The notes under the pieces: generated by a model
Seen by the model: the letters and a program-made list of their open reading frames with translations, nothing else
The model's database searches: none
Told to the model about the DNA's origin: nothing
Shown here: in pieces, positions 3,567 through 42,032 of the stretch
How the letters are laid out: each line of letters starts with the position of its first letter
Position numbering within the stretch: the first letter of the stretch is position 1
Translations under genes and position numbers: made by a program
Assembly (NCBI GenBank): GCA_964651115.1
Contig: CAZYXJ010000002.1
Span: forward strand, 1 to 46,337
DNA length: 46,337 nt
Direction: 5' to 3'
Source: an uncultured Candidatus Saccharibacteria bacterium
GTDB taxonomy: Bacteria > Patescibacteriota > Minisyncoccia > Phycocordibacterales > JACOZG01

Positions 3567-4517
3567 ATGATGATTTCGACTCGAGGCGTAGCGGGAGTGA
3601 TTGGCCTGTTGCTGGTCGCCGTTATTTTAGTGGCCGGTGGCGTTATTTGGTGGGCGCAAGATGATTCGGTAACGCCGCCGGCCACTCCCACGGTGGCCAC
3701 CACCTCGAGTGCGACTACGCGCTCTCGGTTTCGCCAAAGTTCGTGGCGTCGCCCGGGCTTGAGCAACGATACGCGAGGAGTTTTGCGAGCCGGTGATGTT
3801 GCTAAGCGAGCGGTGGCCCTTAGTTGGGGCGACCAAGCCTTTTCCGTGACGGTCGAGGGCCAAGATCACGAGGTTAAGCTGGTGTCGCCCAGTGGTCGAC
3901 AGGTGGCGGCTCAAGGGTTTAGGTATAATCCGGTTACTGGTCAGATGGAGTGGGATTTTTTGGTCCCCGATAACCGGGAGAGTGGCGAATGGGAAGTGGT
4001 GATTACTGCGCCCCCAACTTCTTCGGCTGATTCTGATGAAGATGATGACGATGAGGAAGTTGATTATCAGATCCATCCGCCCGCCTTTGAAGAGAATCCT
4101 TTGGTTCACGATCAGACGCCGCCAGTAATTGACGCGACCCCGGGAGTTGATTTGTCGATTTTGGTTGAAGAGACTTTTATGACAGATGCGGGTTCGATGG
4201 TTCGGCCCGTCGTGGGGGCTCGAGTGGTGGCCGGAGTAACTGATCCGTCGGGAGATGTCTTGGCGGTTGAATTGCCGGCGGTGGCTGGTCAGCCCGGCAA
4301 TTACGCCGGAGTTTATCCTAATCGTGGCGAAGTTGGTATTTATCGGATTGAGTATGAGATTACGGGGCAAGATAGTACTGGTCGGCAATTTGTTCATTAC
4401 GCCTACGGACAGTTTGAGATTGTGGCCACGGCCGGAGGTGGCTCGACGAGTACTAACCAGTGGTATAAAAAATACGATATTAATCGCGCCGGCGACGTCC
4501 GTTTGTTAAATTATTAG
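3567..4517 (+). CDS. Membrane-anchored hypothetical protein with an acidic linker
   Basis: N-terminal TM segment (GVIGLLLVAVILVAGGVIWW), two beta-rich halves joined by SADSDEDDDDEEVD. I recognise no family. The alternative start is 3570. Confidence 0.55.
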   Translation: MMISTRGVAGVIGLLLVAVILVAGGVIWWAQDDSVTPPATPTVATTSSATTRSRFRQSSWRRPGLSNDTRGVLRAGDVAKRAVALSWGDQAFSVTVEGQDHEVKLVSPSGRQVAAQGFRYNPVTGQMEWDFLVPDNRESGEWEVVITAPPTSSADSDEDDDDEEVDYQIHPPAFEENPLVHDQTPPVIDATPGVDLSILVEETFMTDAGSMVRPVVGARVVAGVTDPSGDVLAVELPAVAGQPGNYAGVYPNRGEVGIYRIEYEITGQDSTGRQFVHYAYGQFEIVATAGGGSTSTNQWYKKYDINRAGDVRLLNY

Positions 4518-12956: not shown

Positions 12957-13996
12957 ACTTGTTAGTAATTACTCAGGCGGTAGATAAGGATGATCCGGTG
13001 TTGGGCTTTTTTCATGGTTGGCTCGAGGCTTTCAACCGAAGGTGGGGCAAACTAGAAGTGATTTGTCTTAAGCGAGGAAGAACTGATCTTCCTACGACGG
13101 TTAAGTTACATTCTTTGGGGAAGGAGAAGGGGAAGGTTTCTCGAGTTCGGTATTTGGGACGCCTGGCAAAGCATTTATGGATTTGTCGTGGCGCTTATCA
13201 AACAGTGTTTGTTCACATGACTCCGATATATGTAGTGATGGCCTGGTGGTGGTGGCGGATTTGGGGGGTCCGGATCGTTTTGTGGTACAACCATCCGCGA
13301 GCTGGTTGGATTGATCGTTTGGGCCTATCGTTGGCCGACGTTGTTTGTTACACCTCTCCAGCTTCGTTTAGTGCTCGATATTGTAGGGCTCAAAGAATGC
13401 CCGTAGGGGTTGATGTTGATCTTTTTTCCGGTGGCGATGTGAAAGACTTGGCTTCGACTTTTAGGTTGTTGGTTTTTGGACGAGTAGCCCGTATTAAGCG
13501 TGTGGAGCAAATTCTCGAGGTGTCACAATTTTTGAGTCGGTATTTCCCTTTGGAGACACTTATTGCTGGTCCTGTTGAGGATCTTGATTACTTGAAATTT
13601 TTACAAAACAAAATAGTTAAATTGGGTTTATCTGGCCAGGTTAGGTGGCTAAAACAAATTCCCCACGAGCGAGCAGTTTCGTTGTATCGAGAAAGTGGTT
13701 TGATGTTAAATTTAACGCCCCCGGGAAGTTTGGACAAAACAATTTTTGAGGCCCTGGCGTGCGGAACAATGGTAATAACAACTAATCGTTCTTTTGCTGA
13801 TGAGGGGGTACCGCGAGAGCTTTCTCCTTGGCTGTTTTCTGCTTCAGATGATGTTGAAGATATCGCTAACCTAGCTAAGAAATTTTTTAATCTTCAAGAG
13901 GAACAAAGAAGGGCACTTAAGAAGGCGGGGCGAGATTTTGTTGTTAACCATCATTCGCTTGAAGTTTTGTTAACTAAACTGGAATCGATTTTATGA
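12953..13996 (+). CDS. Glycosyltransferase, probable GT-B fold
   Basis: N-terminus LVITQAVDKDDPVLGFFHGW and C-terminal block DKTIFEALACGTMVITTN. ATGA overlap with the upstream gene. Confidence 0.6.
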   Translation: MNLLVITQAVDKDDPVLGFFHGWLEAFNRRWGKLEVICLKRGRTDLPTTVKLHSLGKEKGKVSRVRYLGRLAKHLWICRGAYQTVFVHMTPIYVVMAWWWWRIWGVRIVLWYNHPRAGWIDRLGLSLADVVCYTSPASFSARYCRAQRMPVGVDVDLFSGGDVKDLASTFRLLVFGRVARIKRVEQILEVSQFLSRYFPLETLIAGPVEDLDYLKFLQNKIVKLGLSGQVRWLKQIPHERAVSLYRESGLMLNLTPPGSLDKTIFEALACGTMVITTNRSFADEGVPRELSPWLFSASDDVEDIANLAKKFFNLQEEQRRALKKAGRDFVVNHHSLEVLLTKLESIL

Positions 13997-14775
13997 GAAA
14001 AAGATTAAAAGATTGGCTCGCCAAGATTTTATTGATGGCAAATTATTCAAGTCCTAAATCGGGCGCCATTCTAATGTATCATTCGGTGGCGTCTAATGGT
14101 GCGTTTTTTTCCGTGACACCGGGGGACTTTGAGGAGCAATTGCGTTTGATCCGATCCAGCGGACGAAGGGTGTTATTTCTGTCCGAATTAATTCAACTTT
14201 TGGTCACAAATCAAGCCGTTAATGGTCTGATCGTCCTTACTTTTGATGATGCTCATCAAGATTTTTATACTACCGTTTTGCCGTTGTTAAAAAAATATCA
14301 GATTCCCGCAACTTTATTTATTCCAACTTCGCTGGTCGGTAAGAATTTAAACGTAACGGGGATTGGCCCCATGCCGATTATGAGCCAGTCACAAATTGAA
14401 GAAGCCGCTAAAAGTGGTTTGGTGGAGCTGGCATCGCATACGGCTAATCATCTTCTGTTGAACGAAATCCCGCTGTCTCAAATCGAAAATGAACTAGTCG
14501 ATTCGCAGCTCTGGCTTACCGGCTTGGGTTTTGAGTCGGTCCCAATTTTGGCGTATCCCAAGGGACGTTATTCTACCGAGGTTATTTCTGTATTACAGCG
14601 ACTTGGCTGGTTGGGGGCCGTAACGGTGAAGCCTGGACTTATTAACTCGCAAAGTTCTAGATTTGAATTACCAAGGATTCCTATTGATTCGGCGACAACC
14701 TCGGCGCTTTTCAGGCTAGCTCTGTCTGAGGGTTATGCGTGGTATGCTACTATTGCTCATGCTAAGTTTTTCTGA
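13993..14775 (+). CDS. Polysaccharide deacetylase (NodB homology domain)
   Basis: LTFDDAHQDFYTTVLPLLKKYQIPATLFIPT and SHTANH motifs. Confidence 0.75.
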   Translation: MRKRLKDWLAKILLMANYSSPKSGAILMYHSVASNGAFFSVTPGDFEEQLRLIRSSGRRVLFLSELIQLLVTNQAVNGLIVLTFDDAHQDFYTTVLPLLKKYQIPATLFIPTSLVGKNLNVTGIGPMPIMSQSQIEEAAKSGLVELASHTANHLLLNEIPLSQIENELVDSQLWLTGLGFESVPILAYPKGRYSTEVISVLQRLGWLGAVTVKPGLINSQSSRFELPRIPIDSATTSALFRLALSEGYAWYATIAHAKFF

Positions 14776-25591: not shown

Positions 25592-27768
25592 CTATTCGGC
25601 ACCTTAGCTCATCTTGGTTGGTTCGGGTTATTGGAATATTAAGTTTGGCGACGCTTTTGGTGCCGCTATTTGTGGCAGATAGTTTGTTCTTTCCCTATAT
25701 CACTGGTAAGGCGATTGCTTTTCGGGCACTGACGGCTTTGGCGGTGATTTTTTGGGCTGGCTTGATTTGGCGGGAGCCGACTTTAATGCCCAAGCGTTCA
25801 ATTTGGCTGGCTGCTCTGGGGGTTTTTATTGGCGTGTTAACACTGTCAACATTTACGAGCATTGATTGGTATCGCAGTTTTTGGTCCAACTACGAACGAA
25901 TGGAGGGTCTGGTTACCTTTTTATATTTGGGTGCCTGGGCATTGGTGCTCTCGACCGTGTTCCGTCTGGAAGTTTTTCGGCGTTGGTTTTGGACGACCAT
26001 GCTTTTTGTTAGTGGATTGCTGGTGTTGTTAGCAATTATCGACGGGGCTCGAGCCGGCTCTTTTAATGGGGCTGTGCGTTTAGATGCTACCTTGGGTAAT
26101 CCGATTTATTTGGCGGTGTATATGTTGTTTGGCCTCGGTGTGTCGGCCGTAGTTGCTCTCCGGGCTCGATCTTTGGCTACGCGTCTCCTGTTGGGAATTT
26201 TGGCCCTTGGACAACTGTGGGCTCTGTATGCTACGGCTACACGTAGTGCCATTCTGGGTTTGATCGGTGGCTTAATCGTGGCGGCGGTGATTTTTGCTTG
26301 GCGGGGGCGTAGCTTTCCTGGGGCTCGCCGATTAGTCATTGCGTTTCTGGCCGCGGTAGTTGTGCTGACCGGTGGCTTTTGGCTTGCCCGGGAATCATCT
26401 TTTGTGCAGGGGAGCCCAGTACTTAGCAGGATTGTTAACATTTCTTTAAGTGACGCCACCACTCGTCACCGCCTAATGAACTGGGACATGGGCTGGCGGG
26501 GATTTCTTGAGCGACCAATTACTGGTTGGGGTTTAGAAAATTACATGGTTGTATTTAGTCGCTTTTATAATCCTGAGCTTTACGATGCTGAGCAGTGGTT
26601 TGATCGGACACACAATATTTATATAGATTGGCTGGTGTCGGCTGGAGTGTTGGGTCTCGCTGCCTATCTTTTTCTGTTGGCGACAGCGCTTTATTATATT
26701 TGGAAGCGCCCACGATCAATTGCAGAAGTGTCGGTGTTGTCTGGCTTGATCTTAGCTTATGCCATTCATAATATTTTCGTTTTCGACAGTTTAACCAGCT
26801 ATATGATTTTATTTGCTGGCTTAGCTTGGCTGGTGACGGAAAGTAGCAATCCCAACCATCAGGAGGAGCCACTAATTAATGAACGGGGTTCTAAAATCGC
26901 GGCGGTAATTTTCGGAGTAGCGGCAATGGTGTCGTTGTGGTGGGCCGTGATCGTTCCTTGGCGTGGCGCTCAACTGTTAGTAGAGACGCTTAATACTGGT
27001 GATCCGGTATCGAAGTTAGATTATTTTAATCAAGCAGTTGATTGGGGTGGTCCAGGACAAGTTGAGGTTCGCGAACAATTAATACAGCAGTCAGGATTTT
27101 TACTGGCGGCTCCAGCTGCGTTGGCGGCGGAAGCTCAGACTTTGATTGATTCGGAAATGAAAAAAGAAATTGATCGGTCGCCGACGAATGTTCGCGCTCT
27201 TTTATTTTATGGATCATATTTGCGAATTAATAAGCGGGCCGCCGAAGCCATTCCTTATTTAGAGCGAGCCGTAGAGCTTTCTCCGACTAAGCAAATGATT
27301 TTGTTTGAACTTGTTTATGCGCTAGATGGGGCGGGGAGGAAGACGGAGGCCTTGGCTGTGGCGCGAAAGGCTTATGAGTTGGCGCCCAAATTCCGTACCG
27401 CCGCCGAAATTTATGCCACCTGGTTGGGGCGAACTGGTCAACAGGACGAGGCGCGGAAGATCCTGGCTTCTTTGCCGGTCGAGCTTTCAGAAAATTTGGA
27501 CTTGGACGAAGTTAATCGTCAGATCAATAGTTTTATTGCCGCGGAGCGCTATGACCTAGCGGCATCCTTGTGGCAGAAAGTTGTAGACGAGCATCCGCAA
27601 AACGCTGAGTATCGTTTTCGTTTGGCGGCGGCACGATTGTTGAATGGTGAAAAAAATAAATCGATCGAAGAGTTGCAGGCGGCGGTTAAGATTGAACCAA
27701 GACTCAGTAAACAAGTTGAATTTTTGATCAGCGAAATTCGCGCGGGGAGAAATCCGATCAGTAAATAA
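25588..27768 (+). CDS. O-antigen ligase/polymerase-like (Wzy_C) membrane protein fused to C-terminal TPR repeats
   Basis: About 12 TM segments, the block ATRSAILGLIGGLIV, and ~230 C-terminal residues with TPR-like periodicity (AEAIPYLERAVELSP..., ALAVARKAYELAP...). Confidence 0.65.
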   Translation: MTIRHLSSSWLVRVIGILSLATLLVPLFVADSLFFPYITGKAIAFRALTALAVIFWAGLIWREPTLMPKRSIWLAALGVFIGVLTLSTFTSIDWYRSFWSNYERMEGLVTFLYLGAWALVLSTVFRLEVFRRWFWTTMLFVSGLLVLLAIIDGARAGSFNGAVRLDATLGNPIYLAVYMLFGLGVSAVVALRARSLATRLLLGILALGQLWALYATATRSAILGLIGGLIVAAVIFAWRGRSFPGARRLVIAFLAAVVVLTGGFWLARESSFVQGSPVLSRIVNISLSDATTRHRLMNWDMGWRGFLERPITGWGLENYMVVFSRFYNPELYDAEQWFDRTHNIYIDWLVSAGVLGLAAYLFLLATALYYIWKRPRSIAEVSVLSGLILAYAIHNIFVFDSLTSYMILFAGLAWLVTESSNPNHQEEPLINERGSKIAAVIFGVAAMVSLWWAVIVPWRGAQLLVETLNTGDPVSKLDYFNQAVDWGGPGQVEVREQLIQQSGFLLAAPAALAAEAQTLIDSEMKKEIDRSPTNVRALLFYGSYLRINKRAAEAIPYLERAVELSPTKQMILFELVYALDGAGRKTEALAVARKAYELAPKFRTAAEIYATWLGRTGQQDEARKILASLPVELSENLDLDEVNRQINSFIAAERYDLAASLWQKVVDEHPQNAEYRFRLAAARLLNGEKNKSIEELQAAVKIEPRLSKQVEFLISEIRAGRNPISK

Positions 27769-27794
27769 TTTTTCAAAAAATATTTTTTGAAAAA
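27769..27794. repeat. Perfect 26-bp AT-rich palindrome
   Basis: tttttcaaaaaa-ta-ttttttgaaaaa, starting 1 nt after the stop codon of the upstream gene. Confidence 0.95.
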
Positions 27795-27877
27795 GTTATC
27801 CACACTTTTCGCTAAAAATAATTGTCGTGCACGATGATTTGTTCGATAATTATTGTGTACGCAGTGATTGGTATGTT

Positions 27878-27907
27878 TGCAAAATATTTTTTAAAAAATA
27901 TTTTGCA
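27878..27907. repeat. Perfect 30-bp AT-rich palindrome
   Basis: tgcaaaatatttttt / aaaaaatattttgca. It shares the AAAATATTTT core with the first palindrome. Confidence 0.95.
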
Positions 27908-27951
27908 CAAGGTCGCGATCATTGCTGGAAACCAAAATTTTGAAATTTACT

Positions 27952-28041
27952 ATGGCTGCTAAAAAACGAAAGGCAACGAAGAAGAAGACGGCGAAGAAGA
28001 CCACCAAGCGCAAGACTGCAAAGCGCAAGGCTCGCCGATAG
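27952..28041 (+). CDS. 29-aa Lys/Arg-rich mini-protein (absent from the ORF track)
   Basis: ATG...TAG encodes MAAKKRKATKKKTAKKTTKRKTAKRKARR. A strong terminator starts 10 nt after the stop. No SD is present. Confidence 0.5.
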   Translation: MAAKKRKATKKKTAKKTTKRKTAKRKARR

Positions 28042-28051
28042 ATTGCTTAAG

Positions 28052-28096
28052 AACAACCCCGCTTCCTAACGACAGAGGCCGGGGTTGTTTTTTTGT
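28052..28096 (+). terminator. Strong rho-independent terminator or attenuator immediately upstream of secA
   Basis: aacaaccccg / cggggttgtt stem with an inner cct/agg pairing, followed by tttttgtg. The secA GTG is 22 nt downstream. Confidence 0.8.
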
Positions 28097-28118
28097 GCCA
28101 AAAAGAGCAGAATGAGTC

Positions 28119-30587
28119 GTGGCTTTTCTGCAAAAACTATTTCGGGGCGGAGAATCGGCTCGCTTTGTCCGATCGGCTAGACCTTTGGTCTTGGCGATCA
28201 ATGATCTGGAGAGTCAGTTTGAGTCCTTAAGTGACGTGGAGTTAACCGCCAAGACTTCGGAGTTTCGGGCTGCTTTGGCGGCCGGGGCGGAGTTAGATTC
28301 TTTATTGGTTCCCGCTTTTGCGGCGGTGAGAGAGTCGGCACGTCGCACTTTGGGCCAGCGCCATTATGACGTGCAATTGTTGGGCGGTATCGCTCTTCAT
28401 CGTGGCGGCGTAGCCGAGATGCGAACAGGTGAGGGAAAAACTTTGGTTTGTACTTTGCCGGCCTACCTTAACGCGTTAAGTGGTCGGGGGGTCCATGTGG
28501 TGACGGTTAACGATTATTTGGCTCGTCGTGACGCGGTGTGGATGGGGCAAATCTATGCCGCACTCGGCTTGTCGGTGGGCGTCATTAATAACGACGCTTC
28601 TTATCTATATGATCCGGGCCATCGCGAAGTGGATGCCGCGCGCGATGAAACCGGTTCGTTTAAGGTTTTTTATGATTTTCTAAAGCCATGCGCGCGTGCC
28701 GAGGCTTATCGAGCCGATATTACCTACGGCACCAATAATCAGTATGGTTTTGATTACTTGCGCGATAACCTGGCTCATTCTCCGGCCGGCGTGGTTCAGC
28801 TTTCCACTGCTCATCCCGGACACCATTTTGCGATTATCGACGAAGTCGATTCTATTTTGATTGATGAGGCGCGAACGCCGTTGATTATTGCTGGTCCAGT
28901 GGGTGAGTCAGAAAGTTTGTATACCAAGTTTGCGGATTTGGTCCGTAATTTTACTCCGGGAGTTGATTACACGGTTGAGGAAAAGGAGCGCTCTATTGGT
29001 ATGACTGAGGAGGGGATTACCAAGGCGGAAAAGTCTTTGGGTATTGATAATCTGTACACCGACGGCGGCATTAAGTACGTTCATCATTTGGAGACCGCTG
29101 TCAAAGCCAAGGCACTTTATGAAATTGATCGTCATTACGTGGTTCGCGATGGTGAGGTGGTGATTGTTGATGATTTTACGGGGCGCTTAATGCCTGGTCG
29201 ACGCTGGTCGGATGGTTTGCATCAAGCCATTGAGGCCAAGGAGGGCGTGTCTATTCGTCAGGAGTCTCGGACTTTTGCCAGTATTACCTTTCAAAATTAT
29301 TTTCGCTTGTATGGCAAAATTTCCGGGATGACGGGTACGGCGTCCTCGTCAGCCGAGGAATTTTTGAAAGTTTATGCGCTGGATGTTTTGTCGATCCCGA
29401 CGCATCGTCCGAGCGCCCGCGAAGATCGTGAGGATTTAATTTTCCAAACCGAAAAAGGTAAGTTCCAGGCGATTGCGCGGGCGATTAAGGGCTTGCACGA
29501 AAAGGGCCAACCGGTGTTGGTGGGCACCGTTTCGATTGAAAAAAATGAGTTACTCTCTGCCTATCTCAAGCGCGAGGGGATTCCTCACCAGATTCTAAAT
29601 GCCAAAAACCACGAGCAGGAGGGAGCGATTATTGCCGAAGCGGGTAAGCGAGGAAGTGTGGTGATTGCTACCAACATGGCGGGTCGTGGTGTCGACATCA
29701 AGCTTGGCGGTAGCGACGCGACCGAACAGGAGGCCACGGCCATTAGGGAATTGGGCGGTTTGTTTGTGCTGGGGACGGAGCGTCACGAAGCGCGGCGCAT
29801 CGACGATCAGTTGCGCGGGCGTTCCGGTCGCCAGGGTGATCCCGGAGCAACGCAGTTTTATATTTCGTTTGAGGATGATTTAGCGCGGATTTTCGCGTCC
29901 GATCGAGTTAAGTCGATGATGGGCCGATTGGGCATTCCGGAGGACGAGCCGATTCAAAATCGCTTGGTTAGCCGCGCGATTGAGAACGCCCAGGCCAAGA
30001 TTGAGGGTTTAAATTTTGACCGCCGCAAGCATGTTTTGGATTACGACATGGTGATGAACCATCAGCGGACGATTATTTACGAGCGGCGTAATGATTTGTT
30101 GTTTGGTGGCGAGTCCGACATTTTAGCTTTCTTGGAGCGAGCGCTCGAAGAGACGGTTGGCGCTGATGAGTTGGTGGCAATTCGCGAACAGATTGACCGT
30201 AAGCGCCAGGAGTTGGGGTCGGACGATTTTGTGATGGCCGTGCGGCAGCTGGCTCTCCAGACCATCGACATGCATTGGGTTAACCATTTGGAGACGATGG
30301 ATTATTTACAGTCAGCGGTGCGCTTGCGGCAAATTGGCCAGCGTGATCCTTTGGTAGAATATCGTAAGGAGGGCTTGGCGGCGTTCAAAGAGATGGAGCG
30401 AACAATTTTTGCTTCGGTGATTAAAGTGTTACCGACCCTAACTTTGACTAAGGCGCCACCGGTGACGGTCGCGGCCACCGAGACGAGTAGTCAGACGATC
30501 GGCCGCAATGATCCTTGCCCTTGCGGTTCGGGGAAAAAATATAAAAATTGCGGACTAATTAACGCTCCAGGGCACCGCGCTGGTTAA
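28119..30587 (+). CDS. secA: Preprotein translocase ATPase SecA
   Basis: MRTGEGKTLV (Walker A), DEVDSILIDEARTPLII, and a C-terminal zinc finger CPCGSGKKYKNCG. GTG start; an in-frame TGA lies 6 nt upstream. Confidence 0.95.
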   Translation: MAFLQKLFRGGESARFVRSARPLVLAINDLESQFESLSDVELTAKTSEFRAALAAGAELDSLLVPAFAAVRESARRTLGQRHYDVQLLGGIALHRGGVAEMRTGEGKTLVCTLPAYLNALSGRGVHVVTVNDYLARRDAVWMGQIYAALGLSVGVINNDASYLYDPGHREVDAARDETGSFKVFYDFLKPCARAEAYRADITYGTNNQYGFDYLRDNLAHSPAGVVQLSTAHPGHHFAIIDEVDSILIDEARTPLIIAGPVGESESLYTKFADLVRNFTPGVDYTVEEKERSIGMTEEGITKAEKSLGIDNLYTDGGIKYVHHLETAVKAKALYEIDRHYVVRDGEVVIVDDFTGRLMPGRRWSDGLHQAIEAKEGVSIRQESRTFASITFQNYFRLYGKISGMTGTASSSAEEFLKVYALDVLSIPTHRPSAREDREDLIFQTEKGKFQAIARAIKGLHEKGQPVLVGTVSIEKNELLSAYLKREGIPHQILNAKNHEQEGAIIAEAGKRGSVVIATNMAGRGVDIKLGGSDATEQEATAIRELGGLFVLGTERHEARRIDDQLRGRSGRQGDPGATQFYISFEDDLARIFASDRVKSMMGRLGIPEDEPIQNRLVSRAIENAQAKIEGLNFDRRKHVLDYDMVMNHQRTIIYERRNDLLFGGESDILAFLERALEETVGADELVAIREQIDRKRQELGSDDFVMAVRQLALQTIDMHWVNHLETMDYLQSAVRLRQIGQRDPLVEYRKEGLAAFKEMERTIFASVIKVLPTLTLTKAPPVTVAATETSSQTIGRNDPCPCGSGKKYKNCGLINAPGHRAG

Positions 30588-34279: not shown

Positions 34280-37081
34280 ATGAAACACGAAAGCCCGTTG
34301 GTCGGTGGCTTTTTCTTGGTCGCGCTAGCGATGTTTAGTTTCTTGGTGGCGCCCGGATTTGTCGCGGCCGCGCCGGCGCTCACGATTAATTATCAAGGCA
34401 AGTTGGCAGACGATAACGGCGCTGTTGTGACCGACGGTACTTACAATATGCGCTTCAAGCTTTATACTGCCGCCTCGGGCGGTAGCCCGGTTTGGACGGA
34501 GACGTGGTGCCACACCCTGGCAAATGATTGTACGGGGCCTTACGTTGACGGCGAAGATATCATTTCTAATGATCAGCGCGTGGAGGTGGCTGATGGCCTT
34601 TTTTCGCTGATGTTGGGGACCCAAACTTCTTTAAGCGCGGTTAATTTTGATCAGCCACTCTACCTAAGCGTCGAGATTGGAGGGACTTCGGAAGTTGCGG
34701 CCGAAGGGTGGGATGGCGAAATGTCGCCGCGCAAGCCGCTCGGCTCCGTGCCCTCGGCGTTTATCGCCCAGAGGTTGAATGGTTTGTCGTCTTCTCAATT
34801 CTTGCGCTCTGATGCCACCAATGCTACTTCGACAACGAACACCGCTTTGGTGATCAACCAACAAGGATTGGGAGCGTTGATCGATTTACAAGACGGTGGC
34901 GTGTCGGCCTTTAAAATTTTGGATGGCGGTAACGTGGGGATCGGCACAAGTACTCCTTACGCCAAGTTGTCGGTGGTGGGCGAGACAGTCAGTACTTATT
35001 TTACGGCGACCTCGACGACCGCCACTTCAACTTTTGCGGGCGGAGTCTCGGCTGGTGCTCTGGAAGTGACGGGCGCGGCTACCTCAACTTTTGCTGGCGG
35101 AATTAATTTAACGACGGGGTGTTTCGCGATTTCTGGCAATTGTGTCGGCGGAGCCGGTGGCGGTTCGGGAACGGTTGGGAGCGGTACCACGGGACAGACT
35201 TCTTACTATGCTGGCAACGGAACTTCGGTTACCGCGACCTCGACCATTTTTATTGGTACCACCAGTTACGTTGGTATTGGCACGGCGTCGCCGTCTTACC
35301 AACTTTCGCTGGCCGCTGATTCAAAGATTGGTATCGGTAGTTTGGCGGCTTTATACATTCCTAATCAAACCAGTTTCGTCGGTAGCTTTTTTGTTGGCGA
35401 TGGCGGCGCGAGTTTGGTCAGCGCCGGAGCTAACCAGGGTGACCACAACACTGGCGTAGGTATTGGCGCGGCCAACGCCCTAACTAGTGGTTATCAGAAT
35501 ACGGCCATCGGTTACCAATCTTTGCATCTGGCGACGTCATCAATTCAAAACACTGCTTTGGGTTATTTAGCTCTCCGCAATACCACTAGCGGTAGCGGCA
35601 ACGTGGGCCTGGGTGTTGGCACTCTTTCCAACAACAGTACTGGTAGCAACAACATGGGTATTGGTAGCAACACTTTGGTTACGAACACTTCTGGTTCGGA
35701 AAACGTTGGTCTTGGTTATCAGGCGATGCGTCTTAATAGTACGGGAAGTTATAATGTGGGTATTGGTAGTGAGGCGTTGTATAACAGTACGGTGACTGGC
35801 AGTGTGGCGGTTGGTTATCGAGCCCTCTATAGTGCCTCAAGTGGTTCTTACAACACCGCCGTTGGTTATCAGGCGGGTAAGGGAGCTAGTGCCCACACGA
35901 CTACGGGTGGCGTCTTTATCGGTTACAACGCGGGAGCGGCGATTACAACGGGCGCGACCAACAACACCATTATTGGCGCGGGATCTGGTGAGACGGTCAG
36001 CTCAGGTAACGGCAATATTTTGATCGGTTACCAGACGGCCAATAATCTTACTAGTGGCTCGCGCAATATCGCCATTGGTTATGACATTGATATTACTAAT
36101 TCGACGGGTAGTAACCAGTTAAATATCGGCAACTTTATTTTTGGAACGGGGATTGACGGTACGGCCGGTACGGTCAGTAATGCAAAGATCGGAATCGGTA
36201 CTACGACCCCCGTCTCTACGCTCTCGGTTCAGGGCTCGCTCTGTGTTCGCGATGATGGTTCTTGTGGCACCACGGCGGGGACGATTTACGCCACAACGGC
36301 GGCCATTTCGGACATTGACGTGGCTGAAAATTTTCCGACCCAGGATGAAACCTTGTCGGCGGGAGAAATTGTCTCGGTTGACCCTGGTGCTGATGAGCAC
36401 ATTAAGCGAGCCGAGAGCGGCGAAGTGGTGGTGGGAGTTGTTTCGACTCAGCCGGGATTGTTGTTGGGGAAAGAATTTTCCTCCGGTCGGCCGGTAGCTT
36501 TGGCGGGTCGCGTGCCGGTAAAGGTTAACGACGAAGGTGGTCCGATTGAGCCCGGTGATTTGATTGCTCTGTCTACCGTCCCGGGAGTTGGTCGCAAGGC
36601 GACGACGAGTGATGAGGTGACGGTCGGCGTGGCGCTGGGATCATTAAATGATTCAACCGGCGAAGTGGTGGTCTTTGTGAGTTTGGAACGTCAGCGCTTG
36701 GCTGACCAGCAGTTATTTGCGGATCGACCGGAGGCGGAGGTTAAATTACGCGAATTAGTCTCTTCTCTGGGCGAGTGGAGCTTATCGGTGGAAGGCATTT
36801 TAACGGTTAAAGAAATCCGGGCTGATCGTCTTTGTTTGGGGGAGACTTGTATTGGTCAAAATGAGCTCGATCGAATTTTGAGACGTTTGAATATTGATGA
36901 ACCAGAATCAACGCCTGATCCGGAACCCGAACCTGAACCCGAACCTGAACCGGAACCTGATCCTGAACCAGAACCAGAAGTTACCCCCGAACCAGAGACC
37001 ACTTCTGATCCGGAGCCAGAACCAGAACCAGAGCCTGGAGTTGTCGTTGACGAAGAGCCAACTTCTGAGCCAGCAGTCTAA
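34280..37081 (+). CDS. Secreted fibre/adhesin-like protein with YadA-head-like repeats and a Pro-Glu tail
   Basis: Signal peptide. There are three (V/I)GIGT(S/T)xP...LS(V/L) motifs and ~14-15-aa repeats of the type NTAxGYxAL..NTTGSxNVGxG (about nt 35460-36110). The C-terminal tail is (PE)n. Confidence 0.6.
36914..37036 (+). repeat. Imperfect hexanucleotide (GAACCN)n tract encoding Pro-Glu/Pro-Asp repeats
   Basis: cctgatccggaacccgaacctgaacccgaacctgaaccggaacct... read directly. Confidence 0.9.
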
Positions 37082-38853: not shown

Positions 38854-38942
38854 AATTCGGGGTAGTTGTTAGATCTGAGGCACGCGTTGTGCTTCAGTGT
38901 TCATTGAAATTTGCGGGAATTCACAGAAAGCGGAGGTGTTCC

Positions 38943-40223
38943 ATGACGACGAGGATTGGTTTCGCAGGATTGGTGGGGTTGTTGGCTGGCTTGGCTGGCT
39001 GCCAACCGGCACCGGTCGCCACAACGGTCCAAGTAAAAGTCGGCGAGCGCCTGCTCGCCACGGGGGAAGAGGTTCGCGTGCGCCAGGGAGACTCTCTCGT
39101 TCTCGAGGCGGTGACGACTGGGGCGGTGGCTGGCTACGACTGGGAGGTGCCGACCGACGCGTCGATGCGGCATAACAGCCCGGATCTGCCGTGGCTGTTT
39201 CGGGATGCGGGCCGTCACCTCATCAAGGTGACAGCCTTCAGTCCGTTCGGTGGAGCTTTCAATGGCTTCACCAGCATCTGGGTCGTCGTCGACCCGGTGC
39301 CTCAGCCGGTTGTGGTTGTGGGTCCTGGCGGTGAGACTCCACCGGTGCCCATCGTCCTCGACCTGGGGCGAATCATCGTCACGGGAGGTGGACTCTGGAT
39401 CCCGGCGGAAAATCTCTTCGAGGTTGAGCCGGGCCAGGAGTTCGTGCTCGACCTCTCGGGCGCCTGCTCGGGCGGCACGGGTCCTTATGGCTTTGTGGTG
39501 ACGGGACCAGGTGGGGTGATTTGGGGCACTTCGCCTCGGATTGTCCGAATCTTGCCGGCAGGAAGTGGTGACGTGTACTTGACGATCCGCGTCACCGACG
39601 GCCGCGGTCAGGTTCGCGAGTTTGTGATCCTGATCCGCGTCCGCGGCGGCGGTAGCAACCCGCCGCCGTGCACCTTGCCGGTGCTGGCCCTGTCGGGCCC
39701 GTCCGCGGTCAAAGCTGGCGAGAGCATCTCGCTGGCTTACCAGGCGAGTGCGGGCACTCTCGCCCTGTCGTCGTCGCCGGCCATCCCGGGACTGCCGTCG
39801 GTGCCGAGCAGTAGTCCAATCGTCATCCCGACGACGGGATTACTGGGGACGTACCGCTTAACTCTCCGCTTGACCAATAGTTGTGGAAGCGTGGAGAAGT
39901 CCCTTGACGTGGCGGTACAAAACGAGCCGCCCACCATGACTTACCCGACAGTGGTGATCAGCGCGCCCGCGCAAGATACCACCGTCAAGGTCGGTCAGGC
40001 GGTCACCTTCACGGCGCAGGTGATTGGAGGTACGCCGCCGTACAGCTATAACTGGCTGTTTAGTGATGGCGATACACCTCCCACCACCAGTAGTTCCTCG
40101 GTGGTCAAGGTGTTTAATCGCGCCACGGCCGGGCAGTTTCCCTTCGACCAGTATCTCGAGGTTCGAGATAGTCAGGGGAGGAAAAGCCTGGTGGCGACGG
40201 TTCGGGTCCGAGTCGTCCCGTAA
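38943..40223 (+). CDS. PKD/Ig-like repeat lipoprotein with high-GC codon usage (probable foreign origin)
   Basis: GGAGG 7 nt upstream. Lipobox LLAGLAGC. PKD signature GGTPPYSYNWLFSDGD. ATC, CTC, GTC and CCG codons dominate, unlike the neighbouring genes. Confidence 0.7.
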   Translation: MTTRIGFAGLVGLLAGLAGCQPAPVATTVQVKVGERLLATGEEVRVRQGDSLVLEAVTTGAVAGYDWEVPTDASMRHNSPDLPWLFRDAGRHLIKVTAFSPFGGAFNGFTSIWVVVDPVPQPVVVVGPGGETPPVPIVLDLGRIIVTGGGLWIPAENLFEVEPGQEFVLDLSGACSGGTGPYGFVVTGPGGVIWGTSPRIVRILPAGSGDVYLTIRVTDGRGQVREFVILIRVRGGGSNPPPCTLPVLALSGPSAVKAGESISLAYQASAGTLALSSSPAIPGLPSVPSSSPIVIPTTGLLGTYRLTLRLTNSCGSVEKSLDVAVQNEPPTMTYPTVVISAPAQDTTVKVGQAVTFTAQVIGGTPPYSYNWLFSDGDTPPTTSSSSVVKVFNRATAGQFPFDQYLEVRDSQGRKSLVATVRVRVVP

Positions 40224-40383: not shown

Positions 40384-40995
40384 ATGAAAAATTACAAACA
40401 AGTAGCAATTTGGGCTTTGGTTTTAGCTTTAGTTTTGGGTGCCACGGTGGCCGTATCGGCTCAGACGGCACTGCAGGCTAACATTTTGGGGCCAGCTAAC
40501 GGCTCTTCTTACGCCGTTGGTCAGCTCGTTTCTTTTGGCGCTTCGGCCGAGGGTGGCAGCGCGCCTTACGTTTATAACTGGGATTTTGGTGATGGCACGA
40601 GTCAGTCGGGTCAATCTTTTGACCGGGCTTACACTCAAGCCGGCAGCCGAACGGTTAAGCTGACGGTGACGGACTTTACTGGTGCCACGGCTGAGGCGAC
40701 TCGCAATCTGACGATTACTGGCGGGACGAGCAATCCGCTCACGATCTCTAATGTTCGCGTAACGGACGTGACCAAGAACAGTGCCGTGGTTCGTTGGACG
40801 ACTAATAAGCCAGCGACGAGTCGGGTCATCTACGATACGGTTTCCCACGCTACTTTGGGAAGCGCGCCTGATTATGGTTATGCCAATACTACTGGGACGA
40901 CTGATGTCGACACCAAGGTGACGGAGCACGCGGTAACGGTTAGCGGTTTGTCTAGCCAGACGACCTACTACTTCCGAGTGATTTCTGAGGCCTAA
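40384..40995 (+). CDS. Secreted PKD-domain plus FN3-like domain protein
   Basis: Signal peptide. GGSAPYVYNWDFGDGT...VKLTVTD is a PKD block. ISNVRVTDVTKNSAVVRWTT...TTYYFRV is FN3-like. Confidence 0.65.
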   Translation: MKNYKQVAIWALVLALVLGATVAVSAQTALQANILGPANGSSYAVGQLVSFGASAEGGSAPYVYNWDFGDGTSQSGQSFDRAYTQAGSRTVKLTVTDFTGATAEATRNLTITGGTSNPLTISNVRVTDVTKNSAVVRWTTNKPATSRVIYDTVSHATLGSAPDYGYANTTGTTDVDTKVTEHAVTVSGLSSQTTYYFRVISEA

Positions 40996-41022
40996 GCCCT
41001 CTTGCTTCGGGTTTGTGGTTTG

Positions 41023-41060
41023 CAAAACTCCGCCTAGAACTTAGGCGGAGTTTTGTTTAT
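41023..41060 (+). terminator. Terminator-like 13-bp perfect hairpin
   Basis: caaaactccgcct-agaactt-aggcggagttttg followed by tttat. Confidence 0.6.
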
Positions 41061-41069
41061 AGTGGGGCG

Positions 41070-42032
41070 ATGACCCGCCGCCAGTGGCAAAAATTATTCC
41101 CCCAAGCCCAGCTTAACTTCCCGATTAGCCGGGTTACTACCTTTGGCGTTGGTGGCGTGGTGGCGGCTTATTTACCAGTCGAAACGCCTGAGGCCCTGAT
41201 GTCGGCGGTGATTCGCGCCCAGCAAGCGAAAGTTAAATATTTAGTTTTGGCGGGAGGCAGTAATGTGGTGTTTGCTGATCGCCGCTACGCTGGTTTGGTC
41301 ATTCATTATTATTCACCCCAGGCGGCTTGTTTAGTCGGCAATGACTCGTTAACTTGTAACGCTGGGGCCAAGTTGTCGACCTTGGTGGCCAGTGCCGTCG
41401 ACGCCGGCTTGGCGGGCTTGGAATCATTGTCGGGGATCCCGGGGACGGTAGGCGGAGCTATCGTTGGTAACGCTGGGGCCTATGGCCAAGCGATTTCTGA
41501 TCACCTGGCTTGGGTGGAAGTTTTTGATTCAACGAAACAGAAAACCAAAATTTTGTCGGTCCAGGAATGCCGGTTTGCTTATCGCGACAGCATCTTTAAA
41601 CATCGTCCGTGGTTGGTGTTGCGGGCTAATTTTAAATTAACCCCTGGCGCGGCGGCTGATTTGCGGCGACGTTCTCAGGAAATTATTGCGGCCCGTGAGA
41701 AAAAATATCCTCCCGGCTTGCGCTGTCCTGGCAGCTTCTTTAAAAACGTTAGAGTGGCCGAAGTGTCTAAAAAATCTCTTCGTTTAATCGACACCAGCAA
41801 AATTATCGAGGGCAAAATTCCGGCTGGTTACTTGTTGGAGGCGGTGGGCGCCAAGGGGCGGCAGGTGGGTGGGGTGCTGGTTTCGGATGTCCACGGTAAT
41901 CTGATCGTTAATGTGGGCCGGGCTCGCTGGGGGGAGGTGCGACGCCTGGCCGAGCAACTTAGGCGGGCCGTATTTAAGCGTTTCGGCATTGTTTTAGAAG
42001 AAGAGGTCCGTTATCTGGGAGGAGTTCGTTAA
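41070..42032 (+). CDS. murB: UDP-N-acetylenolpyruvoylglucosamine reductase
   Basis: TFGVGGVVAAY, LVLAGGSNVVFAD and GIPGTVGGAIVGNAGAYG. Start trimmed to ATG 41070, after the hairpin and 6 nt after TATAGT. Confidence 0.85.
   Translation: MTRRQWQKLFPQAQLNFPISRVTTFGVGGVVAAYLPVETPEALMSAVIRAQQAKVKYLVLAGGSNVVFADRRYAGLVIHYYSPQAACLVGNDSLTCNAGAKLSTLVASAVDAGLAGLESLSGIPGTVGGAIVGNAGAYGQAISDHLAWVEVFDSTKQKTKILSVQECRFAYRDSIFKHRPWLVLRANFKLTPGAAADLRRRSQEIIAAREKKYPPGLRCPGSFFKNVRVAEVSKKSLRLIDTSKIIEGKIPAGYLLEAVGAKGRQVGGVLVSDVHGNLIVNVGRARWGEVRRLAEQLRRAVFKRFGIVLEEEVRYLGGVR

Follow-up and report, generated by a model that had tools for sequence, protein, structure and literature searches.

A widely conserved, uncalled gene predicted to encode a tiny acid-free, lysine-rich protein lies upstream of secA in uncultured Paceibacteria

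The interval upstream of secA in the window (the whole stretch of DNA analyzed here, 46,337 nucleotides) holds a DnaA box, a sigma-70-type promoter, a structured leader, a 29-codon open reading frame (the mini-ORF), an intrinsic terminator, and a candidate promoter next to secA itself, all on the forward strand (Table 1). The mini-ORF, a basic 29-aa ORF that the first-pass annotation had described, is present in the sequence and is the only one among the ATG-initiated ORFs of 15 to 90 aa on both strands of the 46-kb window in which Lys and Arg make up at least 45% of residues. The GTG start of secA and an in-frame TGA just upstream (28113-28115), both noted in the same annotation, were likewise confirmed, and the N-terminus of the predicted protein, MAFLQKLF..., aligns with the MSFLSKLF... 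starts of its relatives.

Table 1. Features of the mini-gene and secA, with positions in the window
Feature	Position	Strand	Description
DnaA-box consensus, perfect	27796..27804	+	TTATCCACA; 40 nt upstream of the -10 hexamer
Mini-gene promoter	27822..27850	+	-35 TTGTCG (27822-27827), 17-nt spacer, -10 GATAAT (27845-27850)
Structured 5' leader	27861..27925	+	Stem P1 (27861-27870 paired with 27916-27925); P2, inner AT-palindrome hairpin (about 27877-27909); GGUCG (27911-27915)
Mini-ORF, 29 codons	27952..28041	+	ATG at 27952, stop TAG at 28039-28041; encodes MAAKKRKATKKKTAKKTTKRKTAKRKARR, a Lys/Arg/Ala/Thr polycation
Intrinsic terminator of mini-gene	28051..28094	+	Hairpin 28051-28090, T7 tract 28088-28094
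Candidate secA promoter (inferred)	28085..28113	+	TTGTTT (28085-28090), 17-nt spacer, CAGAAT (28108-28113)
secA	28119..30587	+	822 aa, GTG start, all SecA Pfam domains

No gene is called at the mini-ORF by the ENA, JGI, or Logan pipelines, and the gene calls of relatives L202 to L205 leave an empty gap where the mini-gene sits. An exact look-up in a collection of 15 billion proteins found 0 of 20 mini-ORF peptides, for which missed calls or filtering of the collection are possible reasons; a phmmer-type search of 5.8 billion proteins returned no match to a mini-ORF peptide at an E value of ≤0.1, and searches of these peptides against Pfam and NCBIfam profiles gave no significant match. Homology searches of this kind are uninformative because the sequence is of low complexity, and membership in the mini-gene family, where low complexity defeats homology tests, was set by context and composition. 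Searches of the literature on Patescibacteria returned no account of a comparable protein and none of DnaA boxes or leaderless genes.

The comparison set covers about 130 loci of uncultured Paceibacteria (CPR) that are related to this one, and in it the elements make up a conserved transcription unit: DnaA box, GATAAT -10 hexamer, structured leader, an ORF beginning "MAAKKK...," and intrinsic terminator. A comparison with related genomes, suggested in the first-pass annotation, thus finds a basic mini-ORF and hairpin before secA, with the frame of the ORF kept, and within the data examined the mini-gene is restricted to Paceibacteria. The 127 nonidentical ORFs that are homologous by context start with M-A-A-K-K-K, range from 12 to 103 codons (median, 31 aa), and consist of 46.5% K, 21.7% A, 8.9% R, 8.6% V, and 5.7% T. 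Their 4,887 residues include no Asp or Glu and a single aromatic, and the two alternative frames contain 223 and 326 stops as well as Glu codons. AAG accounts for a share of 0.56 of Lys codons in the mini-ORFs versus 0.32 in secA from the same loci, and the longest A-run in the mini-ORFs does not exceed 9 nt. The ATG and a GCN second codon are kept, the frame is open from the ATG almost to the terminator in every locus, and indels among relatives L022, L027, and L040 leave the C-terminal residues intact. The C termini, which end in KKK, KRA, KKR, or RRR, share no conserved motif.

Compared with relative L001, the window is 99.5% identical over intergenic positions 27769-27951 and 97.8% identical over the mini-ORF (one synonymous and one Ala-to-Thr change), with 88 to 91% identity in secA and 59 to 83% in the upstream gene. 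This contrast between the mini-gene region and its flanking genes is repeated in a sister strain recovered from cDNA contigs. Because identity across the intergenic region and the ORF exceeds that of both secA and the upstream gene, the mini-gene appears to be under purifying selection. We consider the mini-ORF, as read from its sequence, to be a real, widely conserved, and uncalled gene for a tiny acid-free, Lys-rich protein.

The mini-gene promoter matches 9 of 12 sigma-70 consensus positions in a consensus scan, and its GATAAT is conserved across 112 units, as are a TTG 17 nt 5' of that hexamer and an A-tract ahead of the -35 element. Transcription would start near 27857, with the center of the DnaA box near -58. 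A box with at most one mismatch occurs in the same orientation 105 to 185 nt before the ATG in 37 of 43 GTDB loci (perfect in 31 of the 43), against a background of 0.32 per kb, and the spacer between box and GATAAT is 38 to 42 nt, mostly 40 to 41 nt, in 32 of 40 units. The box is a putative binding site for DnaA. Known DnaA-regulated promoters include those of dnaA and nrdAB in Escherichia coli; the mini-gene resembles them in that the consensus 9-mer precedes the -35 element at a constant position but differs in that its box is single, drives a micro-protein gene, and stands 40 to 41 nt from the -10 hexamer class-wide. An origin of replication was considered and rejected for this locus because the DnaA box stands alone and GC skew stays positive from one side to the other, without a change of sign.

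In the leader, the invariant GGUCG immediately precedes the 3' strand of P1. All 43 of 43 GTDB loci have GGTCG in the 160 nt that precede the ATG (background, 0.77 per kb), and 53% of loci, versus 7% of shuffles, contain P1 as a perfect helix of 9 bp or more, with 54 G-U pairs on this strand. The mean fold z score is -2.63 over 122 units and -5.9 in the window. Pairing was judged by RNAalifold and by pair counts on a subset, MAFFT having misregistered the variable loops: on a plain MAFFT alignment, RNAalifold recovered 7 pairs, 4 of them with compensatory changes, and paired cells amounted to 92.9% versus 84.8% in shuffles, a level matched by 0 of 500 shuffles. The leader matches no Rfam family; scans against Rfam, at gathering and permissive thresholds, gave chance-level matches alone, including Thr_leader at 22.9 bits (cutoff, 55). 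The leader may have a gene-specific RNA role, although a reading as RNA structure is not universal, because P1 is missing in L008, L014, L022, L027, and L040, where GGTCG sits 11 to 18 nt after the -10 hexamer. Two other candidates were rejected, namely, the GGUCG hairpin as a general regulon motif (8.6% elsewhere versus 5 to 8% for control pentamers) and pairing of GGUCG with 16S rRNA (CGACC is absent from the 505 nt of 16S within the window).

The strong hairpin and U tract that had been reported before secA hold up well: the hairpin has 15 pairs and one bulge (-20.7 kcal/mol), a U7 tract follows or overlaps it, and the 90-nt stretch that contains it has a z score of -2.9 versus shuffles. 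A simple terminator scan missed this hairpin solely because its loop is 9 nt and the loop limit of the scan is 8 nt. The close spacing to the stop codon also stands, at 9 nt rather than the 10 nt first given. A single hairpin of -8 kcal/mol or stronger (median, -16.8 kcal/mol) and a T tract follow the mini-ORF in 128 of 129 loci; the terminator sequences are unrelated between loci, the T tracts are interrupted in many relatives, and the stop-to-hairpin gap ranges from 6 to 135 nt (median, 19 nt). In the window, the T tract ends 24 nt before the secA GTG. Because the distance from hairpin to secA is short (median, 48 nt; lower quartile, 29 nt), the terminator tail overlaps the secA promoter.

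Concerning that promoter, the first-pass annotation had found no credible -35/-10 pair between terminator and start codon. This holds insofar as the consensus scan of the window detects no sigma-70 match of at least 9/12 there, but a weak candidate exists, TTGTTT-17-CAGAAT, with 7 of 12 matches (below the scan threshold) and no TGn extension; its -10 hexamer (4/6 matches) ends 5 nt before the GTG, and the candidate overlaps the terminator tail. Positions 28068-28118 are identical in L001, and the weak CAGAAT element is conserved in the closest relative of the window. L205, with 66% identity in SecA, also has the element GCCAAAAAGAGCAGAAT 5 nt ahead of a start codon, and the sequence before its secA reads ...GCCAAAAAAGAGCAGAAT-5 nt-ATG; L017 has TATAAT-7 nt-GTG at the same positions. 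In 68 of 118 relatives, an extended -10 (TGnTAnnnT) lies between terminator and secA and ends 6 to 9 nt before the secA start, and because of this proximity, the secA mRNA of these relatives would be leaderless.

The 3' end of the 16S rRNA in the window (...GUGGAUUUAUUC) lacks CCUCC, the anti-Shine-Dalgarno sequence, and there is no Shine-Dalgarno sequence before secA in the window; many Parcubacteria have been reported to lack the anti-Shine-Dalgarno sequence in 16S rRNA (PMC9297842). Window genes at 3567, 30611, 34280, and 42051 have a TATAAT ending 3 to 12 nt before the ATG, TGn-extended in three cases. The secA mRNA of the window is probably leaderless or nearly so.

The association between mini-gene and secA is close. 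In 42 of 80 GTDB secA loci, the 900 nt before secA contain a K/R-rich mini-ORF in the same orientation, and 40 ORFs with a K+R fraction of at least 0.45 lie within 700 nt of secA versus 17 elsewhere (about 650 kb, two strands). Among metagenome units retrieved without using secA, secA is directly 3' of the mini-gene in 81 of the 83 that could be assessed (about 98%), and the upstream neighbor is variable, falling into 31 clusters across 82 loci. Simple insulation does not account for this near-absolute adjacency. The gene immediately 5' of the unit in L051 and L055 encodes a ribosome hibernation factor-like protein.

Sequence features, conservation, coding signature, and synteny are direct observations, and what we infer beyond them are the transcription start sites, binding by DnaA, the function of the leader, the target of the protein, and the degree of terminator read-through. 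We favor, as the likely reading of the sequence, an interval made up of two tandem transcription units in place of a single gene with a leader. The first, unit 1 (about 27857-28094), would be a monocistronic micro-gene, in which a sigma-70-type promoter, TTGTCG-17-GATAAT, with a DnaA box about 58 nt upstream of the start, would yield an mRNA of about 240 nt carrying the GGUCG hairpin, an unstructured A/U-rich stretch, the 29-aa ORF, and the strong terminator. Unit 2 would be secA, transcribed from a separate promoter that abuts the terminator tail and translated without a Shine-Dalgarno sequence. The terminator would insulate secA from the mini-gene promoter, and leakage past it may contribute to the secA transcript, above all in this lineage, whose secA -10 is weak. 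As an architecture, this agrees with one of the two readings offered in the first-pass annotation, a basic micro-protein with its own terminator, in that the ORF is a conserved coding gene served by a separate promoter and terminator in about 130 loci. The accompanying view that secA needs read-through is not compelled, as the candidate promoter is kept in L205, but some contribution of read-through in this lineage is possible, given that this promoter is weak and that cDNA contigs bridge the terminator.

A tighter coupling of the two units is conceivable, though we regard it as rather unlikely. The units would still be separate, and a meaningful share of secA transcription, perhaps most of it in the lineage of the window, would come from polymerases that pass the terminator or reinitiate just after it, such that the terminator sets the secA dose relative to the DnaA-box promoter and keeps the genes adjacent. 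Near-absolute adjacency despite a varied upstream neighbor argues for this coupling, as do the short hairpin-to-secA distance with overlapping tail and promoter, the interrupted T tracts of many relatives, and the 4/6 match of the secA -10 in the window; by sequence, however, the window terminator is strong, and in most relatives a good promoter stands directly before secA. The RNA data, which are Logan contigs from wastewater cDNA libraries with a flat depth per contig and are not quantitative for read-through, bear on both sides: contigs span the terminator in runs X7, X8, X13, and X21, the last with a contig that starts at 27841, near the mini-gene promoter, and extends into secA, but carry-over of DNA is possible. 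A depth spike at 27962-27997 was traced to unrelated contigs matching the AAG-rich stretch and was disregarded.

The micro-protein would be intrinsically disordered, resembling a histone H1 tail or protamine, and would most likely coat or neutralize nucleic acid; nucleic acid binding is its probable function, and it is probably abundant. The DnaA box in its promoter suggests the nucleoid as the target. H1-like and protamine-like bacterial polycations include Chlamydia Hc1 and Hc2, Pseudomonas AlgP, Bordetella BpH1, the tail of mycobacterial HupB/MDP1, and Coxiella ScvA. The mini-gene product is like these in being Lys/Ala(/Pro/Thr)-rich, acid poor, repetitive, and variable in length, with electrostatic binding to nucleic acid expected, but it is much smaller (median, 31 aa), has no folded domain, and is distinguished by a dedicated DnaA-box promoter, a GGUCG leader, and a fixed place beside secA. 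The best matches to the Hc2 profiles, from one relative only, fell far below cutoff (PF07382, E = 0.52, 10.8 bits versus 40; NF038052, E = 0.41, 10.8 bits versus 135), and the window peptide matched neither.

The ribosome is the alternative target, and a ribosome-associated role, in which the micro-protein would be a free-standing Ala/Lys-rich rRNA-binding tail and not a nucleoid protein, has perhaps one chance in a few of being right. The tiny basic ribosomal proteins bL37, bS22, bTHX, and eL41 have 24 to 33 aa, a fixed length, and a conserved sequence; mini-gene products are similarly tiny, more than half Lys plus Arg, and of a kind often missed by annotation, but they vary about eightfold in length (12 to 103 aa) and consist of simple repeats, which argues against this role. 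The composition suits RNA as well as DNA, the units in L051 and L055 follow a gene related to ribosome hibernation, and in Parcubacteria, whose ribosomes are reduced, uS19 ends in an Ala/Lys-rich C-terminal extension of about 25 aa that is specific to the lineage (PMC9297842). Against it, the promoter DnaA box points to a link with replication, and the loci examined show no linkage to ribosomal-protein operons.

Returning to the nucleoid as target, the elements might together form a previously unrecognized module, a suggestion that we put forward as speculative: a DnaA-driven, replication-coupled gene for an H1/protamine-like micro-protein, with a GGUCG RNA element, co-dosed with a leaderless secA through either terminator leak or hand-over of polymerase to the overlapping promoter. 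If true, bacteria would have an analogue of S-phase histone expression, and ultra-small cells a new means to couple chromosome state to protein export. The promoter of the mini-gene is strong and its expression probably high, and at about 30 residues an acid-free polycation could serve as a major counter-ion of DNA or rRNA, or as a packaging factor, a role that fits cells without many of the usual nucleoid and ribosomal proteins. CPR genomes are tiny, such that a conserved gene overlooked by every pipeline is a real gap in the parts list, and the conserved DnaA box, the gene-specific leader RNA, and the near-absolute linkage to a leaderless secA offer an entry point into the little-studied promoters, translation starts, and replication control of these organisms.

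The other reading in the first-pass annotation, a translation-dependent attenuator in which a ribosome that pauses or terminates on completing the mini-ORF shields the 5' arm of the hairpin, so that read-through into secA depends on translation of the ORF, now seems very improbable, and it finds no support as a conserved mechanism. In its favor, the window hairpin starts close enough to the stop codon for a terminating ribosome to reach it, the secA promoter is weak, cDNA contigs span the terminator, and the adjacency of mini-gene and secA is about 98% conserved. Attenuation is nevertheless not a conserved feature, because the stop-to-hairpin distance varies, exceeding 20 nt in 47% of loci and lying within ribosome reach (≤12 nt) in 15%. 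The ORFs differ in length from 12 to 103 codons without a conserved arrest-like C terminus, minimum free energy and centroid folds of 27857-28100 show an isolated terminator with no competing helix, extended -10 elements lie between terminator and secA in 68 of 118 relatives, and the shift to AAG with avoidance of long A-runs argues for smooth translation, not stalling.

As in SecM-secA of E. coli and MifM-yidC2 of Bacillus subtilis, the mini-ORF is small and stands immediately before a protein-export gene that is read in the same direction. SecM and MifM, however, are export substrates with a conserved arrest motif that unmask a Shine-Dalgarno sequence within one mRNA, whereas the mini-ORF peptides (K, A, R, V, T, and P in composition) have neither a hydrophobic segment nor a conserved C terminus, the host lacks an anti-Shine-Dalgarno sequence, and a terminator (and, in relatives, a promoter) separates the mini-gene from secA. 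With leader-peptide transcription attenuators of the trpL, hisL, and thrL type, the locus shares a short ORF dominated by one amino acid and an intrinsic terminator set between this ORF and the gene that comes next, and the sub-threshold Rfam match is to Thr_leader; it differs from them in lacking antiterminator pairing, in its variable spacing, in the promoter that follows the terminator in relatives, in Lys codons that have no logical link to secA, and in ORFs of up to 103 codons. For annotation, a small ORF and terminator before a gene need not mean an attenuator.

Least probable of all, and barely credible, is that the ORF is untranslated and the unit is a gene for a purine-rich small RNA with a 5' hairpin and terminator, a reading to which the silence of the three gene-calling pipelines, the absence of 20/20 peptides from the protein collection, and the conserved RNA structure at the 5' end of the transcript lend some weight, but which is opposed by the conserved ATG and GCN codon with a frame open in every locus, by the lack of in-frame Asp and Glu codons where the other frames hold Glu and hundreds of stops, by the biased choice of Lys codons, and by C-terminal residues preserved across the indels of L022, L027, and L040.

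Sequence comparisons support reading the basic mini-ORF in front of secA as a class-wide, uncalled micro-gene that has a predicted DnaA-box promoter, a leader RNA specific to it, and a terminator and that keeps a fixed place beside an apparently leaderless secA. The elements described by the first-pass annotation (the ORF, the GC-rich hairpin with its U tract, the GTG start of secA, and the in-frame TGA) are all present in the sequence, and its proposal of a basic micro-protein with its own terminator is supported and extended by the promoter, the leader, and the linkage to secA. The mini-ORF is the only ATG-initiated ORF of 15 to 90 aa with at least 45% Lys plus Arg on either strand of the whole window. 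The consensus terminator scan did not report the window hairpin, solely because its loop is 9 nt long. The N terminus assigned to secA, MAFLQKLF..., aligns to the MSFLSKLF... of its relatives.

Features of the mini-gene and of the secA start in the window
Feature	Position	Strand	Remarks
DnaA box	27796-27804	+	window copy
Mini-gene -35	27822-27827	+	promoter recovered by consensus scan
Mini-gene -10	27845-27850	+	promoter recovered by consensus scan
Leader stem P1	27861-27870 with 27916-27925	+	paired strands
Leader stem P2	about 27877-27909	+	AT palindrome
Mini-ORF	ATG 27952 to TAG 28039-28041	+	29 codons, MAAKKRKATKKKTAKKTTKRKTAKRKARR
Terminator hairpin	28051-28090	+	15 pairs, one bulge, -20.7 kcal/mol
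T7 tract	28088-28094	+	hairpin's 3' end runs into it
Candidate secA promoter	TTGTTT 28085-28090, CAGAAT 28108-28113	+	17-nt spacer; 5 nt from CAGAAT to GTG
secA	GTG 28119	+	all SecA Pfam domains; in-frame TGA at 28113

In 42 of 80 GTDB secA loci, secA is preceded on its own strand by a Lys-rich ORF beginning MAAKKK.... ORFs with a Lys-plus-Arg fraction of at least 0.45 number 40 within 700 nt of secA and 17 in the roughly 650 kb, two strands, elsewhere, some of the latter being the mini-gene itself at a greater upstream distance. Pooling GTDB and metagenome loci yielded 127 nonidentical units, whose mini-ORFs encode 12 to 103 aa (median, 31) with the N-terminal pattern M-A-(A/K)-K-K-K and consist of 46.5% Lys, 21.7% Ala, 8.9% Arg, 8.6% Val, 5.7% Thr, and 2.9% Pro, with no Asp or Glu and a single aromatic residue among 4,887. 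Stops number 223 and 326 in the two alternative frames, where Glu reaches 17%; AAG makes up 56% of Lys codons, versus 32% in secA at the same loci; and C-terminal residues stay in frame across indels between close relatives (Paceibacteria loci L022, L027, and L040). Together, the conserved ORF, its acid-free composition, the stop-filled other frames, the AAG bias, and the frame-keeping indels are signatures of a translated gene. Two changes, one synonymous and the other Ala to Thr, separate the mini-ORF of the window from that of its conspecific locus L001. Despite 46% Lys, the longest A-run in any mini-ORF is no more than 9 nt, which fits selection against poly-A stretches that would be slippery in translation.

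The encoded protein matches no Pfam or NCBIfam family, and Hc2 models reach only an E value of about 0.5, so that it fails membership in that family. A phmmer-type search returned no match, none of 20 mini-ORF peptides (up to 103 aa) occurs in a collection of 15 billion proteins, and the ENA, JGI, and Logan gene calls place nothing in the gap that the mini-ORF occupies; homology tools are unable to cope with this protein. In composition, it most resembles polycations of the H1-tail or protamine type, and we infer that its target is the nucleoid or the ribosome.

Every relative identified through SecA is an uncultured member of the Paceibacteria/Parcubacteria (Candidate Phyla Radiation); SecA of L001 is 96% identical to that of the window, and the next-nearest relatives are at 60 to 67%. 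Of rRNA and tRNA genes, the window has the 3' portion of one 16S gene and two tRNAs, and because no 23S rRNA gene is found across the other 45 kb, the rRNA operon is unlinked. The 16S rRNA ends in ...GUGGAUUUAUUC (DNA at 470-505, ...GTGGATTTATTC) and lacks the CCUCC (CCTCC in DNA) anti-Shine-Dalgarno core, a loss reported in about half of Parcubacteria (PMC9297842). Four operon-leading genes, at 3567, 30611, 34280, and 42051, have a TATAAT hexamer 3 to 12 nt 5' of the ATG, with a TGn extension in all except that at 34280. The missing anti-Shine-Dalgarno core and these near-ATG hexamers indicate that Shine-Dalgarno-independent, often leaderless initiation is the norm, and transcripts with no leader, or almost none, seem to be usual in this genome, where purine runs resembling a Shine-Dalgarno sequence are rare. 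In the first 1,509 nt, the 16S end is followed by an SLT-domain ORF (804-1235), tRNA-Ile(GAT), and tRNA-Leu(CAG).

Upstream of the mini-ORF, 37 of 43 GTDB loci have a match to the DnaA-box consensus, oriented the same way, and in 31 it is a perfect TTATCCACA, against a background of 0.32 per kb. It is held at a rigid 40 to 41 nt from a GATAAT -10 element, which is preceded at 17 nt by a TTG -35 element and, 5' of that, an A-tract. This spacing puts the box near -58, the classical position of an activator, and its perfect consensus suggests that it is bound by DnaA. A replication origin at the box is ruled out, since the GC skew stays positive from one side to the other. The entire 183-nt intergenic region of the window shares 99.5% identity with that of L001, compared with 88 to 91% for secA and 59 to 83% for the upstream gene. 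The core AAAATATTTT(TT) is common to two AT-only palindromes: one (27769-27795) sits between the upstream gene's stop codon, which it directly follows, and the nearby DnaA box, and the other (27877-27909) is the leader hairpin P2. Palindromes of the AAATATTTT type recur in the leaders of six further loci (L005, L007, L013, L015, L019, and L048) and could be protein-binding sites on DNA, instead of or besides forming RNA hairpins.

Between promoter and mini-ORF, all 43 GTDB loci contain GGTCG (background, 0.77 per kb) at variable spacing, 11 to 85 nt from the -10 element and 26 to 92 nt from the ATG. In most loci, it lies directly 5' of the 3' strand of P1, a long-range stem that opens a few nucleotides past the inferred transcription start and frequently has another hairpin nested inside it. 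Of the loci, 53% have a perfect helix of 9 bp or longer, as do 7% of shuffles; these helices include 54 G-U pairs on the mini-gene strand and become shorter when A-C pairs are allowed instead. Folding z-scores average -2.63 over 122 leaders (-5.9 in the window); RNAalifold, given an unfitted MAFFT alignment, finds 7 pairs, of which 4 show compensatory changes; and 92.9% of cells are paired, a level that none of 500 shuffles reached (84.8% in shuffles). Where GGTCG lies only 11 to 18 nt past the -10 element (L008, L014, L022, L027, and L040), P1 is impossible; GGUCG is thus the element common to all loci, and most loci, though not every one, add the stem. Rfam has no family that matches the motif, which shows no enrichment elsewhere in the loci. 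Autoregulation, stabilization, and processing are candidate roles for the leader.

Of 129 loci, 128 have one strong hairpin, with a T tract, after the mini-ORF (median, -16.8 kcal/mol), its sequence unrelated from locus to locus. The secA start lies a median of 48 nt past the hairpin (lower quartile, 29 nt). In 68 of 118 loci, TGnTAnnnT occurs exactly 6 to 9 nt 5' of the secA start codon, matches at other offsets being scattered, and in 67 of 118 a -10 hexamer (at least 5 of 6 positions) lies 3 to 13 nt upstream, with a mode of 9 nt. These near-start elements mark secA as typically a leaderless unit, whose promoter would typically abut or overlap the terminator tail. The first-pass annotation, finding no credible promoter past the terminator, reasoned that secA seems to need read-through; most relatives appear to have a secA promoter of their own, and the window and L001 are outliers, with a GTG start and no extended -10. 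CAGAAT is the best candidate for the window's -10: L017 has TATAAT-7-GTG at the equivalent position, and the closest nonconspecific relative, L205 (SecA 66% identical), has CGCCAAAAAAGAGCAGAAT-agggc-ATG where the window has TGCCAAAAAGAGCAGAAT-gagtc-GTG, so that CAGAAT and its 5-nt gap to the start codon are conserved. An out-of-frame ATG 7 nt 5' of the secA GTG opens a 22-codon ORF (MSRGFSAKTISGRRIGSLCPIG, 28112-28180) that overlaps the secA start. L205 does not have this ORF, which might compete for initiation were transcription to start a few nucleotides 5' of the GTG.

A metagenome search with a pattern made up solely of the box, the -10 element, and GGTCG (TTATCCACA-N40-41-GATAAT-N30-60-GGTCG) returned 120 loci, 89 with a Lys-rich ORF within 130 nt; secA follows immediately in 81 of these and at 817 nt in one, one has none, and six contigs end. 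Upstream neighbors fall into 31 clusters over 82 loci, with MurB in 36 and the others including Wzy_C/TPR (the window's type), Ddl-like, HD-domain, ABC1-kinase-like, and HPF-like hibernation factor proteins. The junction with secA is therefore by far the more stable flank, and with terminator tail and promoter overlapping, there is little neutral DNA where the two genes could part. A rival explanation, itself plausible, is some functional coupling of the two through leak-through or polymerase reinitiation. The RNA data for an L001-like strain consist of assembled wastewater cDNA contigs, which run continuously across the terminator (27403-28171 in run X7, 27649-28171 in X8, and 27875-28171 in X13); one in X21, whose start at 27841 is close to the mini-gene promoter, reaches into secA. 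This is weak evidence that some molecules span the terminator, as depth is given as one mean value per contig and DNA may have been carried over. A depth spike of 300 to 980 at 27962-27997 in all four runs was rejected as mini-gene expression, because it comes from other organisms, whose long and highly expressed contigs match just a 36-nt, low-complexity AAG-rich stretch. The other first-pass proposal, a translation-dependent attenuator of secA, is disfavored as a conserved mechanism by the relatives' own secA promoters and by a stop-to-hairpin distance that runs from 6 to 135 nt (median, 19; quartiles, 16 and 27) and is 12 nt or less in only 15% of loci, the window's 9 nt being at the short end.

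The window's murB (41013-42032) lies 13 kb 3' of secA and is the immediate upstream neighbor of the unit in L008, L014, L039, and others; upstream of the unit, the window has a low-GC block (about 11 to 28 kb, 40 to 46% GC) with glycosyltransferase, polysaccharide-deacetylase, and O-antigen-ligase genes. Displacement and block suggest a rearrangement or insertion that kept mini-gene and secA together. In L051 and L055, the gene for a 137-aa HPF-resembling protein (MRIIVKGRNIKLSPSIKQYIEEKI...) adjoins the unit on its upstream side, and the order hpf-like, mini-gene, secA recalls the hpf-secA neighborhood of Firmicutes. GC content peaks at 64.8% at 39 to 40 kb, versus 44 to 54% elsewhere, over genes for PKD-domain surface proteins (38889-40223 and 40384-40995). 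One chance match to the search pattern, L086, carries at 13275-14130 a 31-nt repeat (ATAGTCTTGCGCTTCGGTCGGACGGGACTAT) in six or more copies, 114 to 231 nt apart, a repeat array that is possibly CRISPR-like and is unrelated to the mini-gene.
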